From: a virus
Lineage: Duplodnaviria > Heunggongvirae > Uroviricota > Caudoviricetes
Direction: 5' to 3' (one strand)
Length of the DNA stretch: 31,081 nt
Virus record (IMG/VR): IMGVR_UViG_2526164667_000037
Of the stretch, positions 3,829 through 30,070 are shown one piece after another. Below the pieces are notes generated by a model. The model was given only the letters and a program-made list of their open reading frames with translations. It had not been told where the DNA came from and searched no databases. Position numbers and translations under genes: made by a program. Numbering within the stretch: the first letter of the stretch is position 1; every line of letters starts with the position of its first letter.

Positions 3829-4100
3829 GTATTCGTATTGAAATTGGCGAACGTTATGTCGTTACCAGTGACAGCTTTCAGTTTATTCTCCACGAGAAAA
3901 AGAGAGCGGAAAGCGGTAAAAACGCCGGTCAGGAATGGCTGGCGGTGGTTGGTTATTATCCGAAATTAAGCCAGCTCGTTTCCGGCCTGATGCATCACGA
4001 TATTCTGACCGGAAGCGCAAAGTCTTTTGCTGATTTAAACGCGCAGGTTGAGCAACTCAGCAGGCGTTGTTCAGAGGCTTTTGGCTCATATGGCCGTTAA
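3825..4100 (+). CDS. P2 orf83-like hypothetical protein (91 aa)
   Basis: ORF coupled to the preceding gene; its 3' end overlaps the start of A. Confidence 0.7.
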   Translation: MSIRIEIGERYVVTSDSFQFILHEKKRAESGKNAGQEWLAVVGYYPKLSQLVSGLMHHDILTGSAKSFADLNAQVEQLSRRCSEAFGSYGR

Positions 4101-6375
4101 AGCCTCCGGGCGTTTTGTCCCTCCTTCAGCATTTGCTGCAGGCACCGGTAAGGCGTTTACCGATGCTTATGCATGGAACGCGCCACGCGAGGCCGTCGGG
4201 CGCGAAAGACCCCTTACACGTGACGAGATGCGTCAGGTGCAAGGTGTTTTATCCACGATTAACCGCCTGCCTTACTTTTTGCGTTCGCTGTTTACTTCAC
4301 GCTATGACTACATCCGGCGCAATAAAAGCCCGGTGCACGGGTTTTATTTCCTCACATCCACTTTTCAGCGTCGTTTATGGCCGCGCATTGAGCGCGTGAA
4401 TCAGCGCCATGAAATGAACACCGACGCGTCGTTGCTGTTTCTGGCAGAGCGTGACCATTATGCGCGTCTGCCGGGGATGAATGATAAGGAGCTGAAAAAG
4501 TTTGCCGCCCGTATTTCATCGCAGCTTTTCATGATGTATGAGGAACTCTGCGATGCCTGGGTGGATGCGCATGGCGAAAAAGAATCGCTGTTTACGGATG
4601 AGGCGCAGGCTCACCTCTATGGTCATGTTGCTGGCGCTGCACGTGCTTTCAATATTTCCCCTCTCTACTGGAAAAAATACCGTAAAGGACAGATGACCAC
4701 GAGGCAGGCATATTCTGCCATTGCCCGTCTGTTTAACGATGAGTGGTGGATTAGTCAGCTTAAAGGCCAGCGTATGCGCTGGCATGAAGCGTTACTGATA
4801 GCTGTCGGGGAGGTCAATAAAGACCGTTCTCCTTATGCCAGTAAACACGCCATTCGTGATGTGCGTGCGCGCCGCCAGGCAAATCTGGAATTTCTTAAAT
4901 CGTGTGACCTTGAAAACAGGGAAACCGGCGAACGCATCGACCTTATCAGTAAGGTGATGGGCAGTATTTCTAATCCTGAAATTCGCCGGATGGAGCTGAT
5001 GAACACCATTGCCGGTATTGAGCGTTACGCCGCCGCAGAGGGTGATGTGGGGATGTTTATCACGCTGACCGCGCCGTCAAAGTATCACCCGACACGTCAG
5101 GTCGGAAAAGGCGAAAGAAAAACCGTCCAGCTTAATCACGGCTGGAATGATGAGGCATTTAATCCAAAGGATGCGCAGCGTTATCTCTGCCGTATCTGGA
5201 GCCTGATGCGCACGGCATTCAAGGATAATGATTTACAGGTCTACGGTTTGCGTGTCGTCGAGCCACACCACGACGGAACGCCGCACTGGCATATGATGCT
5301 TTTTTGTAATCCACGCCAGCGTAACCAGATTATCGAAATCATGCGTCGCTATGCGCTCAAAGAGGATGGTGACGAAAGAGGAGCCGCGCGAAACCGTTTT
5401 CAGGCAAAACACCTTAACCGGGGCGGTGCTGCGGGATATATCGCGAAATACATCTCAAAAAACATCGATGGCTATGCACTGGATGGTCAGCTCGATAACG
5501 ATACCGGCAGGCCGCTGAAAGACACAGCGGCGGCTGTTACCGCATGGGCGTCAACGTGGCGCATACCACAATTTAAAACGGTTGGCCTGCCGACAATGGG
5601 GGCTTACCGTGAACTACGCAAATTGCCTCGCGGCGTCAGCATTGCTGATGAGTTTGACGAGCGCGTCGAGGCTGCACGCGCCGCCGCAGACAGTGGTGAT
5701 TTTGCGTTGTATATCCGCGCGCAGGGTGGGGCAAATGTCCCGCGCGATTGTCAGACTGTCAGGGTCGCCCGTAGCCCGTCGGATGACGTTAACGAGTACG
5801 AGGAAGAGGTCGAGAGAGTGGTCGGCATTTACGCACCGCATCTCGGCGCGCGTCATATTCATATCACCAGAACGACGGAGTGGCGCATTGTGCCGAAAGT
5901 TCCGGTCGTTGAGCCTTTGACTTTAAAAAGCGGCATCGCCGCGCCTCGGAGTCCTGTCAATAACTGTGGAAAGCTCACTGGTGGTGATACTTCGTTACCG
6001 GCTCCCACACCTTCTGAGCACGCCGCAGCAGTGCTTAATCTGGTTGATGACGGTGTTATTGAATGGAATGAACCGGAGGTCGTGAGGGCGCTCAGGGGCG
6101 CATTAAAACACGACCTGCGAACGCCAAACCGTCAGCAAAGAAACGGAAGCCCGTTAAAACCACATGAAATTGCACCATCGGCCAGACTGACCCGGTCGGA
6201 AAGAATGCAAATTACCCGTATCCGCGTTGACCTTGCTCAGAACGGTATCAGGCCGCAGCGATGGGAGCTTGAGGCGCTGGCGCGTGGCGCGACCGTAAAT
6301 TATGACGGGAAAAAATTCACGTATCCGGTCGCTGATGAGTGGCCGGGATTCTCAACAGTAATGGAGTGGAAATGA
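4090..6375 (+). CDS. A: Replication initiation protein A (rolling-circle nicking endonuclease), 761 aa
   Basis: Start MAVKASGRFVPP at 4090 gives the P2 A length; contains PHWHMMLF (HUH-type motif) and Tyr-rich active-site region; sequence matches P2 A as I recall it. Confidence 0.95.
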   Translation: MAVKASGRFVPPSAFAAGTGKAFTDAYAWNAPREAVGRERPLTRDEMRQVQGVLSTINRLPYFLRSLFTSRYDYIRRNKSPVHGFYFLTSTFQRRLWPRIERVNQRHEMNTDASLLFLAERDHYARLPGMNDKELKKFAARISSQLFMMYEELCDAWVDAHGEKESLFTDEAQAHLYGHVAGAARAFNISPLYWKKYRKGQMTTRQAYSAIARLFNDEWWISQLKGQRMRWHEALLIAVGEVNKDRSPYASKHAIRDVRARRQANLEFLKSCDLENRETGERIDLISKVMGSISNPEIRRMELMNTIAGIERYAAAEGDVGMFITLTAPSKYHPTRQVGKGERKTVQLNHGWNDEAFNPKDAQRYLCRIWSLMRTAFKDNDLQVYGLRVVEPHHDGTPHWHMMLFCNPRQRNQIIEIMRRYALKEDGDERGAARNRFQAKHLNRGGAAGYIAKYISKNIDGYALDGQLDNDTGRPLKDTAAAVTAWASTWRIPQFKTVGLPTMGAYRELRKLPRGVSIADEFDERVEAARAAADSGDFALYIRAQGGANVPRDCQTVRVARSPSDDVNEYEEEVERVVGIYAPHLGARHIHITRTTEWRIVPKVPVVEPLTLKSGIAAPRSPVNNCGKLTGGDTSLPAPTPSEHAAAVLNLVDDGVIEWNEPEVVRALRGALKHDLRTPNRQQRNGSPLKPHEIAPSARLTRSERMQITRIRVDLAQNGIRPQRWELEALARGATVNYDGKKFTYPVADEWPGFSTVMEWK

Positions 6376-6827
6376 TGGCAAAAATTCACGAGGTAAAGCT
6401 GCACGCCAAATATTTTGACCTTGTGCTGGAAGGAAAGAAACGCGCAGAGTTTCGGAAAAATGACCGTAATTATGAGCGCGGGGACACGCTGATTTTGCAT
6501 GAATGGGTACAGGGTGTGTTTACGGGGCGAAAGGTTGAAGCCCGGATAACAGATGTTACTGACCTGTCAGACTGGCTGGAAGATTATGTCTTGCTAAGTA
6601 TTGAGCTGCTTAATACAGGCGCATATGAGATTGTGAACTGGAAAGAACTTAGTGAGCGTGGTCTGGTATTCAGAATTAATCATGAAATTATGCATCAGCT
6701 CGGTCTTGCTGTTATGTATGAGTCAGTGACAGGCCTGTCTGGCGGAGCAGTGGTTGCCACGGATGGAGCATGGAACTATTCAGATGAACAGATGGAGCGT
6801 GCACAGCAAAACGGGTGGCTTGGATAA
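6372..6827 (+). CDS. ASCH/DUF3850-like (PUA-fold) protein, about 151 aa, coupled to A
   Basis: ATG overlaps the A stop (ATGATG at 6372-6377); N-terminus KIHEVKLHAKYFDLVLEGKKRAEFRKNDRNYERGDTLILHEW looks like an ASCH-type domain (recognised by eye, not searched). Confidence 0.65.
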   Translation: MMAKIHEVKLHAKYFDLVLEGKKRAEFRKNDRNYERGDTLILHEWVQGVFTGRKVEARITDVTDLSDWLEDYVLLSIELLNTGAYEIVNWKELSERGLVFRINHEIMHQLGLAVMYESVTGLSGGAVVATDGAWNYSDEQMERAQQNGWLG

Positions 6828-7048
6828 TGCACAGAATACCAGGCGAGATACCGCACCATAAAACTAAAAATATCAAGCTGATGGCCATTGTTCACCGTCT
6901 ACAGCAGATTATGGTAAACGAAAATCTGACGCCTGATGAGCTGGTCGGGTGTGCGCAAATTGTTAGGGATAATTACGAGCGTTTGAACGATATGATTCAG
7001 CTTGGTACTTTCCAGCCAACAATACCTTTCTGGGGGCAACCTCGATAA
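6827..7048 (+). CDS. Hypothetical small protein (73 aa)
   Basis: ATG 6827 overlapping the previous stop (TAATG); no recognisable family. Confidence 0.45.
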   Translation: MHRIPGEIPHHKTKNIKLMAIVHRLQQIMVNENLTPDELVGCAQIVRDNYERLNDMIQLGTFQPTIPFWGQPR

Positions 7049-7053
7049 CCATA

Positions 7054-7096
7054 AAACCCTGCAGGTGCTGAAACTTGTTTTCAACACCTGCAGGGT
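7054..7096. repeat. Perfect 13-bp inverted repeat (AACCCTGCAGGTG ... CACCTGCAGGGTT) with 17-nt loop
   Basis: Read directly in the sequence; not followed by a T-run; sits at the boundary between the phage-GC region and the AT-rich cassette. Confidence 0.8.
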
Positions 7097-7170
7097 TGAG
7101 CAATGAGCGGCGCTAGGAGTTAGCAGCCTAGATTTCTGAATGTAACCCATTATAAAAATGATTTTGTGAT

Positions 7171-7200
7171 TTGAAGCTTGGAATTAAAATGAGTTAAAAT
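7171..7200 (+). promoter_or_regulatory. Candidate sigma70 promoter for the AT-rich cassette
   Basis: TTGAAG (7171-7176), 18-bp spacer, TAAAAT (7195-7200), within an AT-rich leader upstream of ATG 7267. Confidence 0.3.
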
Positions 7201-7266
7201 GAGTAGTGTTAACAGGCTGATAAACTAAACCAAGTAAGTTGTAAAAATAAATAGTGGAGTGTACAA

Positions 7267-7653
7267 ATGACACAGCAATATGTTAAAGACGTCATGATTG
7301 GTCAGAGGAAATTGCTTTCATCTAATACTTTCATAATTCCAAAAGGTGAAATGTGTGATTTTAAATTAAATATATCTGATGACGAGAATGAGTTTAACTT
7401 TCCTATTCGCATTGCCTTTGATGATGATGGCGGTTCAACTCAATCAGTTGAGTTCAAACCAGATCCATCCTCAAGCTCTATGAAAATGATCTTGCATAAC
7501 TGGAATAACCCTCTTGGCTCTGCGCTGAAAGAGTTTTACCCTATTGTTAATATCGAGAATAGAACAACAATTGAAATGCTTATGGTAAATAAAAGACTTG
7601 GCGATGTAAATGAACTGGTTATTCAATTCTGGCGAAAGGTCGAAATGTCATGA
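7267..7653 (+). CDS. Hypothetical protein, 128 aa, no recognised domain (first gene of AT-rich cassette)
   Basis: ORF with GGAG 7 nt upstream of ATG; low GC; stop overlaps the next start (ATGA at 7650-7653). Confidence 0.7.
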   Translation: MTQQYVKDVMIGQRKLLSSNTFIIPKGEMCDFKLNISDDENEFNFPIRIAFDDDGGSTQSVEFKPDPSSSSMKMILHNWNNPLGSALKEFYPIVNIENRTTIEMLMVNKRLGDVNELVIQFWRKVEMS

Positions 7654-8006
7654 ATAAGCCAAAAATAGAACTAGCTACAATTCCTGTCTCGCCTGATGAT
7701 ATATCCACTAACTTGCAGGTGGGTGTAATAGTTGTTAGTGAGGATAAGTTGATTCGCATCCTTGAAAAGGATCGGGAGAGGACTAAAAAGAATATGGCTT
7801 GGACAGCTCCTGCTAGTTTTTTTATCACATTGATTGTTGCAATATTAACAACTGATTTTAAAAGTCGGTGGGGTATGCCTGCGGAAGCATGGCAGGCGCT
7901 TTTTTATGTAGGGGCGGGATTATCTGCAATCTTTGCTGTTATTTATTGGTGTAAAGTAGACAGAAAAGACATGGATAAGTTGATTGAAGAGATAAAAGGT
8001 AAATAG
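7650..8006 (+). CDS. Small membrane protein, 118 aa, two predicted TM helices (second gene of cassette)
   Basis: Hydrophobic segments WTAPASFFITLIVAILTTDF and AWQALFYVGAGLSAIFAVIYW flanked by charged residues; translationally coupled to the upstream ORF. Confidence 0.7.
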   Translation: MNKPKIELATIPVSPDDISTNLQVGVIVVSEDKLIRILEKDRERTKKNMAWTAPASFFITLIVAILTTDFKSRWGMPAEAWQALFYVGAGLSAIFAVIYWCKVDRKDMDKLIEEIKGK

Positions 8007-8027
8007 TCTCTTCCTATTTCACATTAT

Positions 8028-8055
8028 GGGGGATTCTTGAGTTATGCCCCCTTTT
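8028..8055 (+). terminator. Putative terminator (GGGGG-loop-CCCCC-TTTT) after the cassette
   Basis: GGGGG 8028-8032, CCCCC 8047-8051, then TTTT; 14-nt loop makes it weak. Confidence 0.35.
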
Positions 8056-8063
8056 GTAACGTG

Positions 8064-8093
8064 AAAAACTGGCATCTTGAGAGCCAGTTTTTT
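8064..8093. terminator. Putative bidirectional rho-independent terminator
   Basis: AAAACTGGC (8065-8073) pairs with GCCAGTTTT (8083-8091); A-run on one side and T-run on the other. Confidence 0.5.
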
Positions 8094-8252: not shown

Positions 8253-8271
8253 GGCGAGGCGGGGAAAGCAC
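8253..8271. other. cos site (19-nt cohesive end GGCGAGGCGGGGAAAGCAC)
   Basis: Matches the P2 cohesive-end sequence as I recall it; located upstream of the portal/terminase genes. Confidence 0.85.
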
Positions 8272-8440: not shown

Positions 8441-9475
8441 TCAGCCGTTGTCAGTGTCCAGTGAGTAGTTTTTAAAGCGGATGACCTCCTGGCCGAGCCA
8501 GCCGTTTATTTCCCGAATCCTGTCCTGTAACGGGATAAGTTCATTGCGGACAAAGACCTTTGCCACTTTCTCAATATCACCCAGCGACCCGACGTTCTCC
8601 GGCTTGCCGCCCATCAACTGAAAAGGGATGCGGTGCGCGTCCAGCAGGTCTGCGGCGCTGGCTTTTTTGATATTAAAAAAATCGTCCTTCGTTGCCACTT
8701 CACTGAGCGGGATAATTTTAATACCGTCGGCTTTTCCCTGTGGGGCGTAGAGAAACAGGTTTTTAAAGTTGTTGCGGCCTTTCGACTTCACCATGTTTTC
8801 GCGAAGCATTTCGATATCGTTGCGATCCTGCACGGCATCGGTGACGTACATGATGTATCCGGCATGTGCGCCGTTTTCGTAATACTTGCGGCGGAACAGC
8901 GTGGCCGACTCATTCAGCCAGGCAGAGTTAAGGGCGCTGAGATATTCCGGCAGGCCGTACAGCTCCTGATTGATATCCGGCTCCAGCAGGTGAAACACGG
9001 AGCCGGGCGCGAAAGGTGTCGGCTCGTTGAAGGATGGCACCCACCAGTAAACATCCTCCTCCACGCCACGGCGGGTATATTTTGCCGGTGAGGTTTCCAG
9101 TCTGATGACCTTACCGGTAGTGCTGTAGCGCTTTTCCAGAAACGCATTACCGAACACCAGAAAATCCAGCACAAAGCGGCTGAAATCCTGCTGGGAAAGC
9201 CACGGGTGCGGGATAAACGTTGAGGCCAGAATATTACGTTTGACGTAAATCGGTGAGCTGTGATGCACGGCAGCACGCAGGCTTTTTGCCAGACCGGTAA
9301 AGCTGACCGGTGGCTCATACCATCTGCCGTTACTGATGCACTCGACGTAATCCAGAATATCACGGCGGTCGAGTACCGGCACCGGCTCACCAAAGGTGAA
9401 TGCCTCCATTTTCGGGGCGCTGGCAGTCATTGTTTTCACCGCTGGCTGCGGTGTTTTCCCTTTTTTCTTACTCAT
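8441..9475 (-). CDS. Q: Portal protein (344 aa)
   Basis: Same length and position as P2 Q; start overlaps the P stop. Confidence 0.95.
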   Translation of the reverse strand: MSKKKGKTPQPAVKTMTASAPKMEAFTFGEPVPVLDRRDILDYVECISNGRWYEPPVSFTGLAKSLRAAVHHSSPIYVKRNILASTFIPHPWLSQQDFSRFVLDFLVFGNAFLEKRYSTTGKVIRLETSPAKYTRRGVEEDVYWWVPSFNEPTPFAPGSVFHLLEPDINQELYGLPEYLSALNSAWLNESATLFRRKYYENGAHAGYIMYVTDAVQDRNDIEMLRENMVKSKGRNNFKNLFLYAPQGKADGIKIIPLSEVATKDDFFNIKKASAADLLDAHRIPFQLMGGKPENVGSLGDIEKVAKVFVRNELIPLQDRIREINGWLGQEVIRFKNYSLDTDNG

Positions 9476-29723: not shown

Positions 29724-29942
29724 ATGTTTCATTGTCCTTTATGCCAGCATGCCGCACATGCGCGTACAAGCCGCTATATCACTGACACGACAAAAGAGCG
29801 TTATCACCAGTGTCAGAACGTGAATTGCAGCGCCACGTTCATCACTTATGAGTCGGTACAGCGATACATCGTGAAGCCGGGAGAAGTCCACGCCGTAAGG
29901 CCGCATCCGTTGCCGTCAGGGCAGCAAATTATGTGGATGTGA
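29724..29942 (+). CDS. ogr: Late gene transcription activator Ogr (zinc finger), 72 aa
   Basis: MFHCPLCQHAAHARTSRYITDTTKERYHQCQNVNCSATF... with four-Cys zinc finger; matches P2 Ogr as I recall it; the upstream ORF extension from 29661 is rejected. Confidence 0.95.
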   Translation: MFHCPLCQHAAHARTSRYITDTTKERYHQCQNVNCSATFITYESVQRYIVKPGEVHAVRPHPLPSGQQIMWM

Positions 29943-29946
29943 TCAC

Positions 29947-29978
29947 AAAAATAGCCCCTCACTTGAGGGGCTATTTTT
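29947..29978. terminator. Rho-independent terminator after ogr (bidirectional-looking)
   Basis: Perfect 14-bp stem AAAAATAGCCCCTC / GAGGGGCTATTTTT with 4-nt loop; A-run on one side and T-run on the other. Confidence 0.8.
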
Positions 29979-30070
29979 ATGGTCGATGTGGACGCTATGT
30001 GGACAGCGGTTGACATAAATCCATTTATATCATCAGGTTAGGTGCTTTTTTGTGACACCATCCCTGTCTT

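Follow-up and report, generated by a model that had tools for sequence, protein, structure and literature searches.

A conserved two-hairpin element on the sense strand of the gene A-to-cos accessory region of P2/186-like prophages

Phages are known to place hairpins of ~20 bp right after their cistrons. Such hairpins, found at the RNase III sites of the T7 early genes and at lambda sib, act on the sense strand and lack a U-tract, and once processed they set the stability of the upstream message. The duplex of an intercistronic RNase III site extends over about two helical turns. REP/BIME sequences are imperfect palindromes near stop codons, which protect upstream mRNA and modulate operon expression. 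In integrons, the core consensus of the folded attC site is GTTRRRY. A hairpin in a phage intercistronic region or 3′-UTR is thus a known kind of element. Few prophages of enterobacteria are as common as the P2-like ones. Their region between gene A and cos is a known anti-phage defence hotspot (PMC9122126, PMC13586616). What is new in the element described here is a two-hairpin layout with an invariant core, restricted to the stretch between A and cos in P2/186-like phages and prophages of enterobacteria.

The window, by which we mean the whole stretch of 31,081 nt that was analysed, is a P2-like prophage. Its integrase gene lies at 1-1191 on the minus strand, replication gene A at 4048-6375, upstream of the element and on the same strand, and portal gene Q at 8441-9475 on the minus strand. 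Inside gene A, at ~5943-5962, is the P2 ori nick motif CCTCGGAGTYCTGTCAATAA, which is almost unchanged in L013, L020, L040 and other loci whose A protein is ~37% identical to that of the window. Between gene A and the element are a DUF3850/ASCH gene (6339-6827) and a small plus-strand ORF listed at 6827-7048 (73 aa from its ATG, with a longer open frame from 6815). The small ORF matches PHROG phrog_11386 (E = 5.7e-37, function unknown) and is the last conserved gene of the early region; its TAA stop codon at 7046-7048 ends 6 nt 5′ of the first hairpin of the element, HP1.

Downstream, an AT-rich cargo island (7124-8036, plus strand) was delimited by composition, by Pfam and PHROG matches and by alignment with phage 186, whose similarity to the window restarts at ~8037, just 5′ of a t95b-like terminator, so that the cargo spans approximately this interval. 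It holds two plus-strand ORFs with overlapping stop and start codons, one encoding a DUF6864 protein of 128 aa (7267-7653, phrog_35122) and the other a protein of 118 aa (7650-8006, phrog_32870). PADLOC gave zero matches on the cargo, and the exact combination of element and cargo occurs in 5 of 5426 complete E. coli genomes; located in a known defence hotspot, the two ORFs are a candidate two-gene defence system. The terminator-like hairpin, CTGGC...GCCAG followed by a T-run (8069-8093, plus strand), is the counterpart of the annotated 186 t95b. Beyond it, the cohesive-end sequence GGCGAGGCGGGGAAAGCAC at 8253-8271 (no strand assigned), which we take to be the P2 cos sequence, was recognised by its letters and by its position relative to portal gene Q, which agrees with the P2 annotation.

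Other features of the window were also surveyed. Neither a tRNA or tmRNA nor a LexA box was found within it. The sole other long hairpin-type inverted repeat is at 29941-29984, with 21-nt arms that are 90% complementary and a 2-nt loop. Flanked by runs of A and of T (AAAAATAGCCCCTCA / TGAGGGGCTATTTTT), it has the appearance of a terminator working in both directions, close to the right end of the prophage. A direct repeat, TTATGGTAAAC / TTATGGTAAAT, is present at 6909-6923 inside the small ORF and at 7580-7594 inside the first cargo ORF. It resembles the XerD-binding arm of cer/dif, probably by chance. Cer-like (Xer) sites were considered for the P2 variable region and dropped: a review (PMC8987985) cites Nilsson 2004 only for inverted repeats around the fun (Z) gene, which is another P2 locus.

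A first-pass annotation had placed a perfect 13-bp inverted repeat with a 17-nt spacer at 7054-7096. The repeat and its spacer are exact, while the coordinates lie one base too far left: the arm AACCCTGCAGGTG occupies 7055-7067 and is answered, after a spacer of 17 nt, by its exact reverse complement at 7085-7097. The palindrome is only the lower stem of the longer hairpin HP1 (7055-7097, plus strand), in which 19-nt arms at 7055-7073 and 7079-7097 form a 19-bp stem with one C·A mismatch (C7068/A7084) around a 5-nt loop, CTTGT (7074-7078). Two earlier statements on this hairpin hold. It is very stable, at -30.6 kcal/mol on the plus strand (z = -5.1, none of 200 shuffles being as good), and it is not a canonical intrinsic terminator, since GAGCAATGAGCG rather than a T-run follows it on the plus strand and no plus-strand site was called at 7055-7097. 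The switch in composition observed at the palindrome was likewise confirmed, with GC falling from 0.46 (6501-7000) to 0.37-0.38 (7001-8000) and reaching 0.53 beyond.

The whole element covers 7052-7123 on the plus strand (~70 nt) and consists of a stop-like TAA (7052-7054), HP1, G7098, a second hairpin, HP2, and a final AG. HP2 (7099-7121, plus strand) is small and irregular, with its loop at 7109-7111. It is built from the pairs 7099-7121, 7100·7120, 7101-7119, 7104·7116, 7106-7114, 7107-7113 and 7108-7112, with non-canonical positions at 7102/7118, 7103/7117 and 7105/7115. The family consensus of HP2 is AACAACGAGC-NNN-GCGAGGCGTT, laid out as AAC-AA-C-GA-GC, a 2-3-nt loop and GC-GA-G-GC-GTT; the window copy departs from it at four places, three of which keep or create pairs. 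This 3′ tail, which lies beyond the 13-bp palindrome, is the most conserved part of the element, and the family consensus after HP1 reads GAACAACGAGC. The element has a near-invariant core of 31 nt, and in the alignments sequence conservation stops after GTTAG, at position 7123 of the window. Against covariance model R1, the window copy scores 74.1 bits (E = 6e-17, plus strand, 7047-7127).

Two observations concern the tail and the far edge of the cargo. A weak direct repeat, CTTGAGTTATGC at 8036-8047, resembles the last 12 nt of the element, CTAGGAGTTAGC at 7113-7124, and may be a remnant of a second element copy or of an insertion event; with filters off, the covariance model found no second copy in the cargo or at its right boundary (best score 3.8 bits). 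A relationship of the tail to the ori nick was also considered and rejected, as its complement shares just CGCCTCG with the A-protein nick motif CCTCGGAGTCCTGTCAATAA, on the opposite strand.

When 7030-7125 was compared with isolated phages by sensitive BLAST, matches were obtained in 186, PSP3, EtG, FSLSP004 and many Yersinia phages, over a span comprising the hairpin and 27 nt further 3′. In 186 and YpM_50, a different stem sequence occupies the same place and is followed by a near-identical tail, GGGTTGAACAACGAGC-NNN-GCGAGGCGTTAG. Scanning IMG/VR with the first 16 nt of the tail yielded ~100 genuine loci. Overall, the copies identified in phages and prophages of the P2/186 type in Enterobacterales number more than 120. 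A stricter pattern searched in GTDB genomes was present in 27 species, all of them Enterobacterales. With a consensus query, the element was detected in 522 of 5426 complete E. coli genomes (~10%), at 1-2 places each, and in 67 isolated phage records from Escherichia, Yersinia, Salmonella, Klebsiella and Erwinia. The proposal to look for the palindrome at related cargo junctions was therefore productive with respect to the hairpin, which has homologues at the corresponding position of more than 120 P2/186-like loci, and not with respect to the arm sequence, which is not conserved.

To characterize the structure, 95 copies (93 distinct) were aligned with MAFFT, and pairs were counted in the same alignment. 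Compensatory double changes occur at 14 of the 19 HP1 pairs, with 90% of HP1 cells paired, and 85.5% of cells are paired over the whole structure, compared with 27-40% in slid controls. None of 500 shuffles reached the covariation observed among the 93 distinct copies. As many as 61 different HP1 alleles were counted in 101 loci, and the AT-rich divergent copies inside cargo (L183, L198) keep their pairing. The loop lengths vary, so that no reading frame is kept and the element is not coding.

The same pair counts indicate a strand. HP1 cells contain 186 G·U against 34 A·C combinations, which identifies the sense (plus) strand as the functional one. At single HP1 positions the GC, GU and AU states are about equally frequent (30/29/27), GC-GU-AU being the usual substitution path of RNA. 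The plus-strand hairpin is the more stable in 86 of the 93 copies, with a mean of -24.9 kcal/mol versus -17.5 kcal/mol on the minus strand. The same strand bias would be seen if the plus strand acted as single-stranded DNA. Together with the layout described above, these data allow us to state with high confidence that the palindrome forms the lower part of the HP1 stem, within a conserved two-hairpin, sense-strand element in the A-to-cos accessory region.

These observations bear on two double-stranded or coincidental explanations. The perfect 13-bp symmetry would suit a dimeric DNA-binding protein, and a regulator-binding palindrome had indeed been suggested for this site. The family contradicts that suggestion: arm sequences vary between phages and co-vary so that pairing is kept, and many G·U pairs arise on one strand only, a strand-specific folding that rules out a double-stranded operator. 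As for a chance palindrome, ~0.008 perfect 13-bp inverted repeats with a loop of ≤20 nt are expected in a window of 31 kb (31081 × 18 / 4^13), and homologues of this one are present in more than 120 loci. An operator or a coincidental palindrome is accordingly scarcely credible.

An intrinsic terminator on the minus strand, which would stop antisense transcription that comes from the cargo or from the portal operon and runs into the early genes, is suggested by the window copy itself. Its minus-strand hairpin (-35.9 kcal/mol, z = -6.6) is perfect but for one G·U pair and precedes TTTTATGGTTAT; the terminator scan called it as a site. However, the window copy is one of 7 exceptions that fold slightly better on the minus strand, whereas that hairpin is the weaker one in the other 86 of 93 copies, and most copies have only GTTT after it. 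The conserved tail would moreover stand upstream of such a hairpin, where it would have no purpose, and no minus-strand gene is nearby, both cargo ORFs being on the plus strand. The marks of a minus-strand terminator thus belong to the window copy and not to the family; strand-specific folding argues against this explanation as well, and we regard it as highly improbable.

The predicted second hairpin is also supported, from far fewer compensatory events than HP1. Its six Watson-Crick pairs are 97% paired, and its loop is free in sequence and in length (2-3 nt). The tandem G·A/A·G of the consensus is replaced by U-A/C-G in 5-7 copies, and single copies show further changes, from G-C to A-U in L171 and from C-G to U-A in L183. 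Folding of single sequences predicts HP2 only for the Watson-Crick variant. Two additional pairings were rejected for lack of covariation: a pseudoknot between the HP1 loop CUYGY and HP2 GCGAG (columns 32-36 with 71-75 of alignment A6), possible in 86% of cells and equalled by 478 of 500 shuffles, and a closing helix of 5′ AACGCC with 3′ GGCGUU (columns 9-15 with 75-80), possible in 88% of cells and equalled by 100 of 500 shuffles. These alternative pairings could be a conformational switch or coincidence.

The genomic position of the element is conserved. In all loci with enough flank (~100), the element is preceded by gene A on its own strand and followed by portal gene Q on the other one, with A proteins that are 28-100% identical to that of the window. 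The element is 250 to 2900 bp from the end of gene A and 350 to 3700 bp from the end of gene Q, which indicates DNA of variable length on both of its sides. It starts 1-8 nt 3′ of the stop codon of the upstream gene; of 101 distinct contexts, 72 have an upstream frame that ends ≤8 nt from HP1, and in 49 the gap is exactly 2 nt. The families of this upstream gene include phrog_11386 (homologues of the small ORF, directly upstream in 50 loci), Tum/DinI-like, Orf97 and others. A common ancestry of the upstream small ORFs was rejected, as hhalign gave a probability of <1.1%, consistent with unrelated families. Two copies are found in ten loci, in the same orientation, 400-970 bp apart and each directly after a gene; writing E for the element, examples are PSP3 (tumB-E′-gp37-E-gp38) and L174 (small ORF-E-orf97-like-E). 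In the 186 record, the element stands between the orf97 stop codon and t95b, the annotated end of the p95 transcript, and is therefore inside the p95 mRNA.

A different arrangement is seen in the 10 deep-branching loci that were examined. There, the ATG of the next gene comes 2-3 nt after GTTAG, and HP2 places its GAGG 9-10 nt 5′ of this ATG, as the predicted Shine-Dalgarno sequence of the downstream gene. The downstream genes belong to two unrelated families. One encodes a UmuD′-like protein of 107 aa that begins MGFPSPAQDYVE and is without the part of UmuD preceding the cleavage site (L005, L014, L045, L106); the other encodes an unknown protein of 87-93 aa that begins MGGRDSEFQIVYRGE (L013, L024, L027, L093, L096, L103). 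Both adjoin Tum/DinI-like genes, which suggests an SOS-related module.

The sense-strand fold, the position after stop codons, the gene-element-gene repeats and the location inside the p95 transcript fit a cis-acting RNA signal. We tentatively favour, with a little less than even confidence, the reading that the element is a structured RNA acting in cis to punctuate the early/SOS transcript, from an intercistronic or 3′-UTR position. This comes closest to the RNA processing or stability element that the first-pass annotation had listed among its suggestions. The stable HP1 would either block 3′-to-5′ exonucleases or serve as a site for a double-strand-specific RNase, and with either action the 3′ end of the upstream message would be defined and protected, irrespective of the cargo downstream. 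A plain stabiliser hairpin would leave the near-invariant sequence of HP2 unexplained. This near-invariance implies a putative specific partner, for which HP2, with its non-canonical pairs, would be the recognised part. In the deep-branching relatives, HP2 with its GAGG could in addition couple or gate the translation of the downstream gene.

An RNA acting in trans, either as a small RNA processed from the 3′-UTR or as a decoy titrating a host or phage protein, is one of the alternatives to this punctuation. The conserved tail suggests specific recognition, and in 186-type phages a terminator hairpin within ~20 nt could give a 3′-UTR-type small RNA of ~120 nt. In many phages, however, including the window, cargo comes before any terminator and the element is still intact. 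A duplex scan of the prophage showed no outstanding target (best z ~-4 over ~12,000 windows), and no Rfam family corresponds to the element. We consider a trans-acting RNA improbable.

The junctions of the element offer a further line of evidence. Similarity between phages breaks right after GTTAG, where 35 different downstream sequence clusters begin. One upstream cluster (45 loci) is joined to 14 downstream clusters, and one downstream cluster (19 loci) to 5 upstream clusters. Beyond the tail the DNA is no longer homologous, so that recombination between phages would resolve at this last conserved stretch. As part of the punctuation reading, the near-identical tail would act as a short homology through which cargo is exchanged by ordinary recombination, as a side effect; such an anchor would explain the switch in composition at the 3′ end of the element.

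These junctions could instead reflect a joint that functions at the DNA level in cargo swapping, either as a short, dedicated homology anchor or, like the attC of integrons, as a folded single-stranded site at which a recombinase cuts and joins. The meeting of different sequences on both sides of the element, the end of similarity exactly after GTTAG, the tandem gene-E-gene-E arrangements and the folding specific to one strand would all be expected of such a joint. The base of the stem is always AAC...GTT, GTTGAAC fits the attC core, and the last 12 nt of the element are weakly repeated at the far edge of the cargo (8036-8047). On the other hand, ordinary homologous recombination would by itself put breakpoints at the edges of any conserved segment, with no need for a dedicated site, and most near relatives exchange cargo without the element. 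Furthermore, the comparison of L174 with 186 puts the junction of the orf97 cassette away from the edge of the element. The likeness to integrons also has limits: there is no integron-type integrase (none in the annotated stretches of 186, PSP3, Wphi, 12474III and YpM_50), no attI and no long cassette array, with ≤2 copies of the element; the bases before AAC do not pair with those after GTT, unlike attC R″/R′; and HP2 has no attC counterpart. We judge a recombination joint unlikely overall. Its more specific form, in which a folded single-stranded capture or exchange site, attC-like and without an integrase, would use the nicking protein A or a host enzyme on the displaced plus strand, appears very doubtful.

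Displacement of the plus strand also underlies the possibility of a single-stranded DNA signal in rolling-circle replication, for example a site for priming or for loading a helicase in lagging-strand synthesis. In P2, the annotated ori nick falls inside gene A, and the window has the same motif at ~5943-5962; if the plus strand is the nicked one, the element would follow ~1.1 kb downstream on the displaced strand, where its fold forms. A hairpin with a tail is also typical of single-strand initiation signals. The orientation is compatible with a single-strand initiation or primosome site, whereas presence in all members is not observed: P2 replicates normally without the element, most near relatives have none, it occurs twice in some phages, and some of its copies are decayed. 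Its distance from the ori ranges from 0.7 to >3 kb, the abundant G·U states fit RNA better than DNA, and the nicked strand is known solely from a GenBank feature. We give this replication signal little probability.

The element is not essential, and this bears on its use as a boundary mark. Among 80 IMG/VR loci with a portal protein ≥99% identical to that of the window, which define the set of nearest relatives, it is present in 17 and decayed in 2, and ~75% are without it. In ~50 of the 80, similarity to the window ends at the end of gene A, which indicates that the DUF3850 gene, the small ORF and the element form a module that is itself accessory. The suggestion that the palindrome marks the cargo boundary is thus right for the window, where it sits at the border of the AT-rich cargo, and cannot be extended to the hotspot as a whole: most of the nearest relatives have no element, and their variable region begins directly where gene A ends. 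It is absent from canonical P2 too, in which everything from the 3′ part of orf91 to cos has given way to the tin-old insertion. The element is thus dispensable, and this, like the decayed copies, counts against the punctuation reading.

Altered copies were observed as well. The decayed copy of L193/L211 lies at ~800-870 in reverse-complement coordinates, and that of L193 has a truncated HP1 and a mutated tail. In L177, a rebuilt copy (8544-8613) has a shorter, unrelated hairpin instead of HP1, with the tail intact.

The element is apparently undescribed. It is not a feature of the curated 186, PSP3 and Wphi records, and among the database matches listed none has it as a feature, a few showing only an overlapping hypothetical-protein call. 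Rfam 15 returned no family for the window at the gathering threshold; at an E-value threshold, only sub-threshold matches to microRNA-like hairpins were obtained for the window, 186, YpM_50 and 12474III. Literature searches retrieved nothing relevant to the element, nor its tail sequence in a phage context. Hairpins, stem-loops, palindromes and terminators go unmentioned in the hotspot papers PMC9122126 and PMC13586616.

It would therefore be a new family of cis-elements in a classic model system. If it sets the 3′ ends of mRNAs, this would explain how essential early genes are insulated from a changing cargo, and since it follows the SOS antirepressor gene tum in 186-type phages, it may bear on prophage induction. 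If it guides recombination, cargo swapping would be explained, and an attC-like site, if real, would provide a molecular mechanism for the turnover of the P2-like defence hotspot. Either way, the element is a practical landmark for delimiting cargo in P2/186-like prophages.

Compared with known systems, the element resembles attC in its place at the 3′ end of a cassette gene and where cassettes change, in combining a variable stem with a conserved structure, in its AAC...GTT base and in folding on one strand. The 5′ sides seen here (such as AGCAAAC, GAGAAC and ATAAAAC) misfit the RYYYAAC of the attC inverse core and pair only via AAC/GTT. With REP/BIME sequences, it shares 3′ untranslated or intercistronic positions. 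REP sequences have a GTAG head and hundreds of dispersed chromosomal copies, in contrast to an element that has no such head and is limited to 1-2 places per genome, only in P2/186-like prophages and in 522 of 5426 E. coli genomes. The T7 RNase III sites and sib are similar in following stop codons and in being repeated as gene-hairpin-gene, and the architecture of an RNase III signal, a 19-bp HP1 on the sense strand in an intercistronic position, is present, cleavage being putative. The T7 sites differ in having, typically, an internal loop where HP1 is almost perfectly paired; both the T7 sites and sib are unrelated to the element in sequence and have no counterpart of its second, sequence-conserved hairpin, HP2. 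Finally, the SOS (p95-tum-orf97) operon of 186 carries the element after orf97, still within the p95 transcript, as a unit separate from the terminator t95b and ~20 nt upstream of it, whereas in the window ~900 bp of cargo stand between the two.
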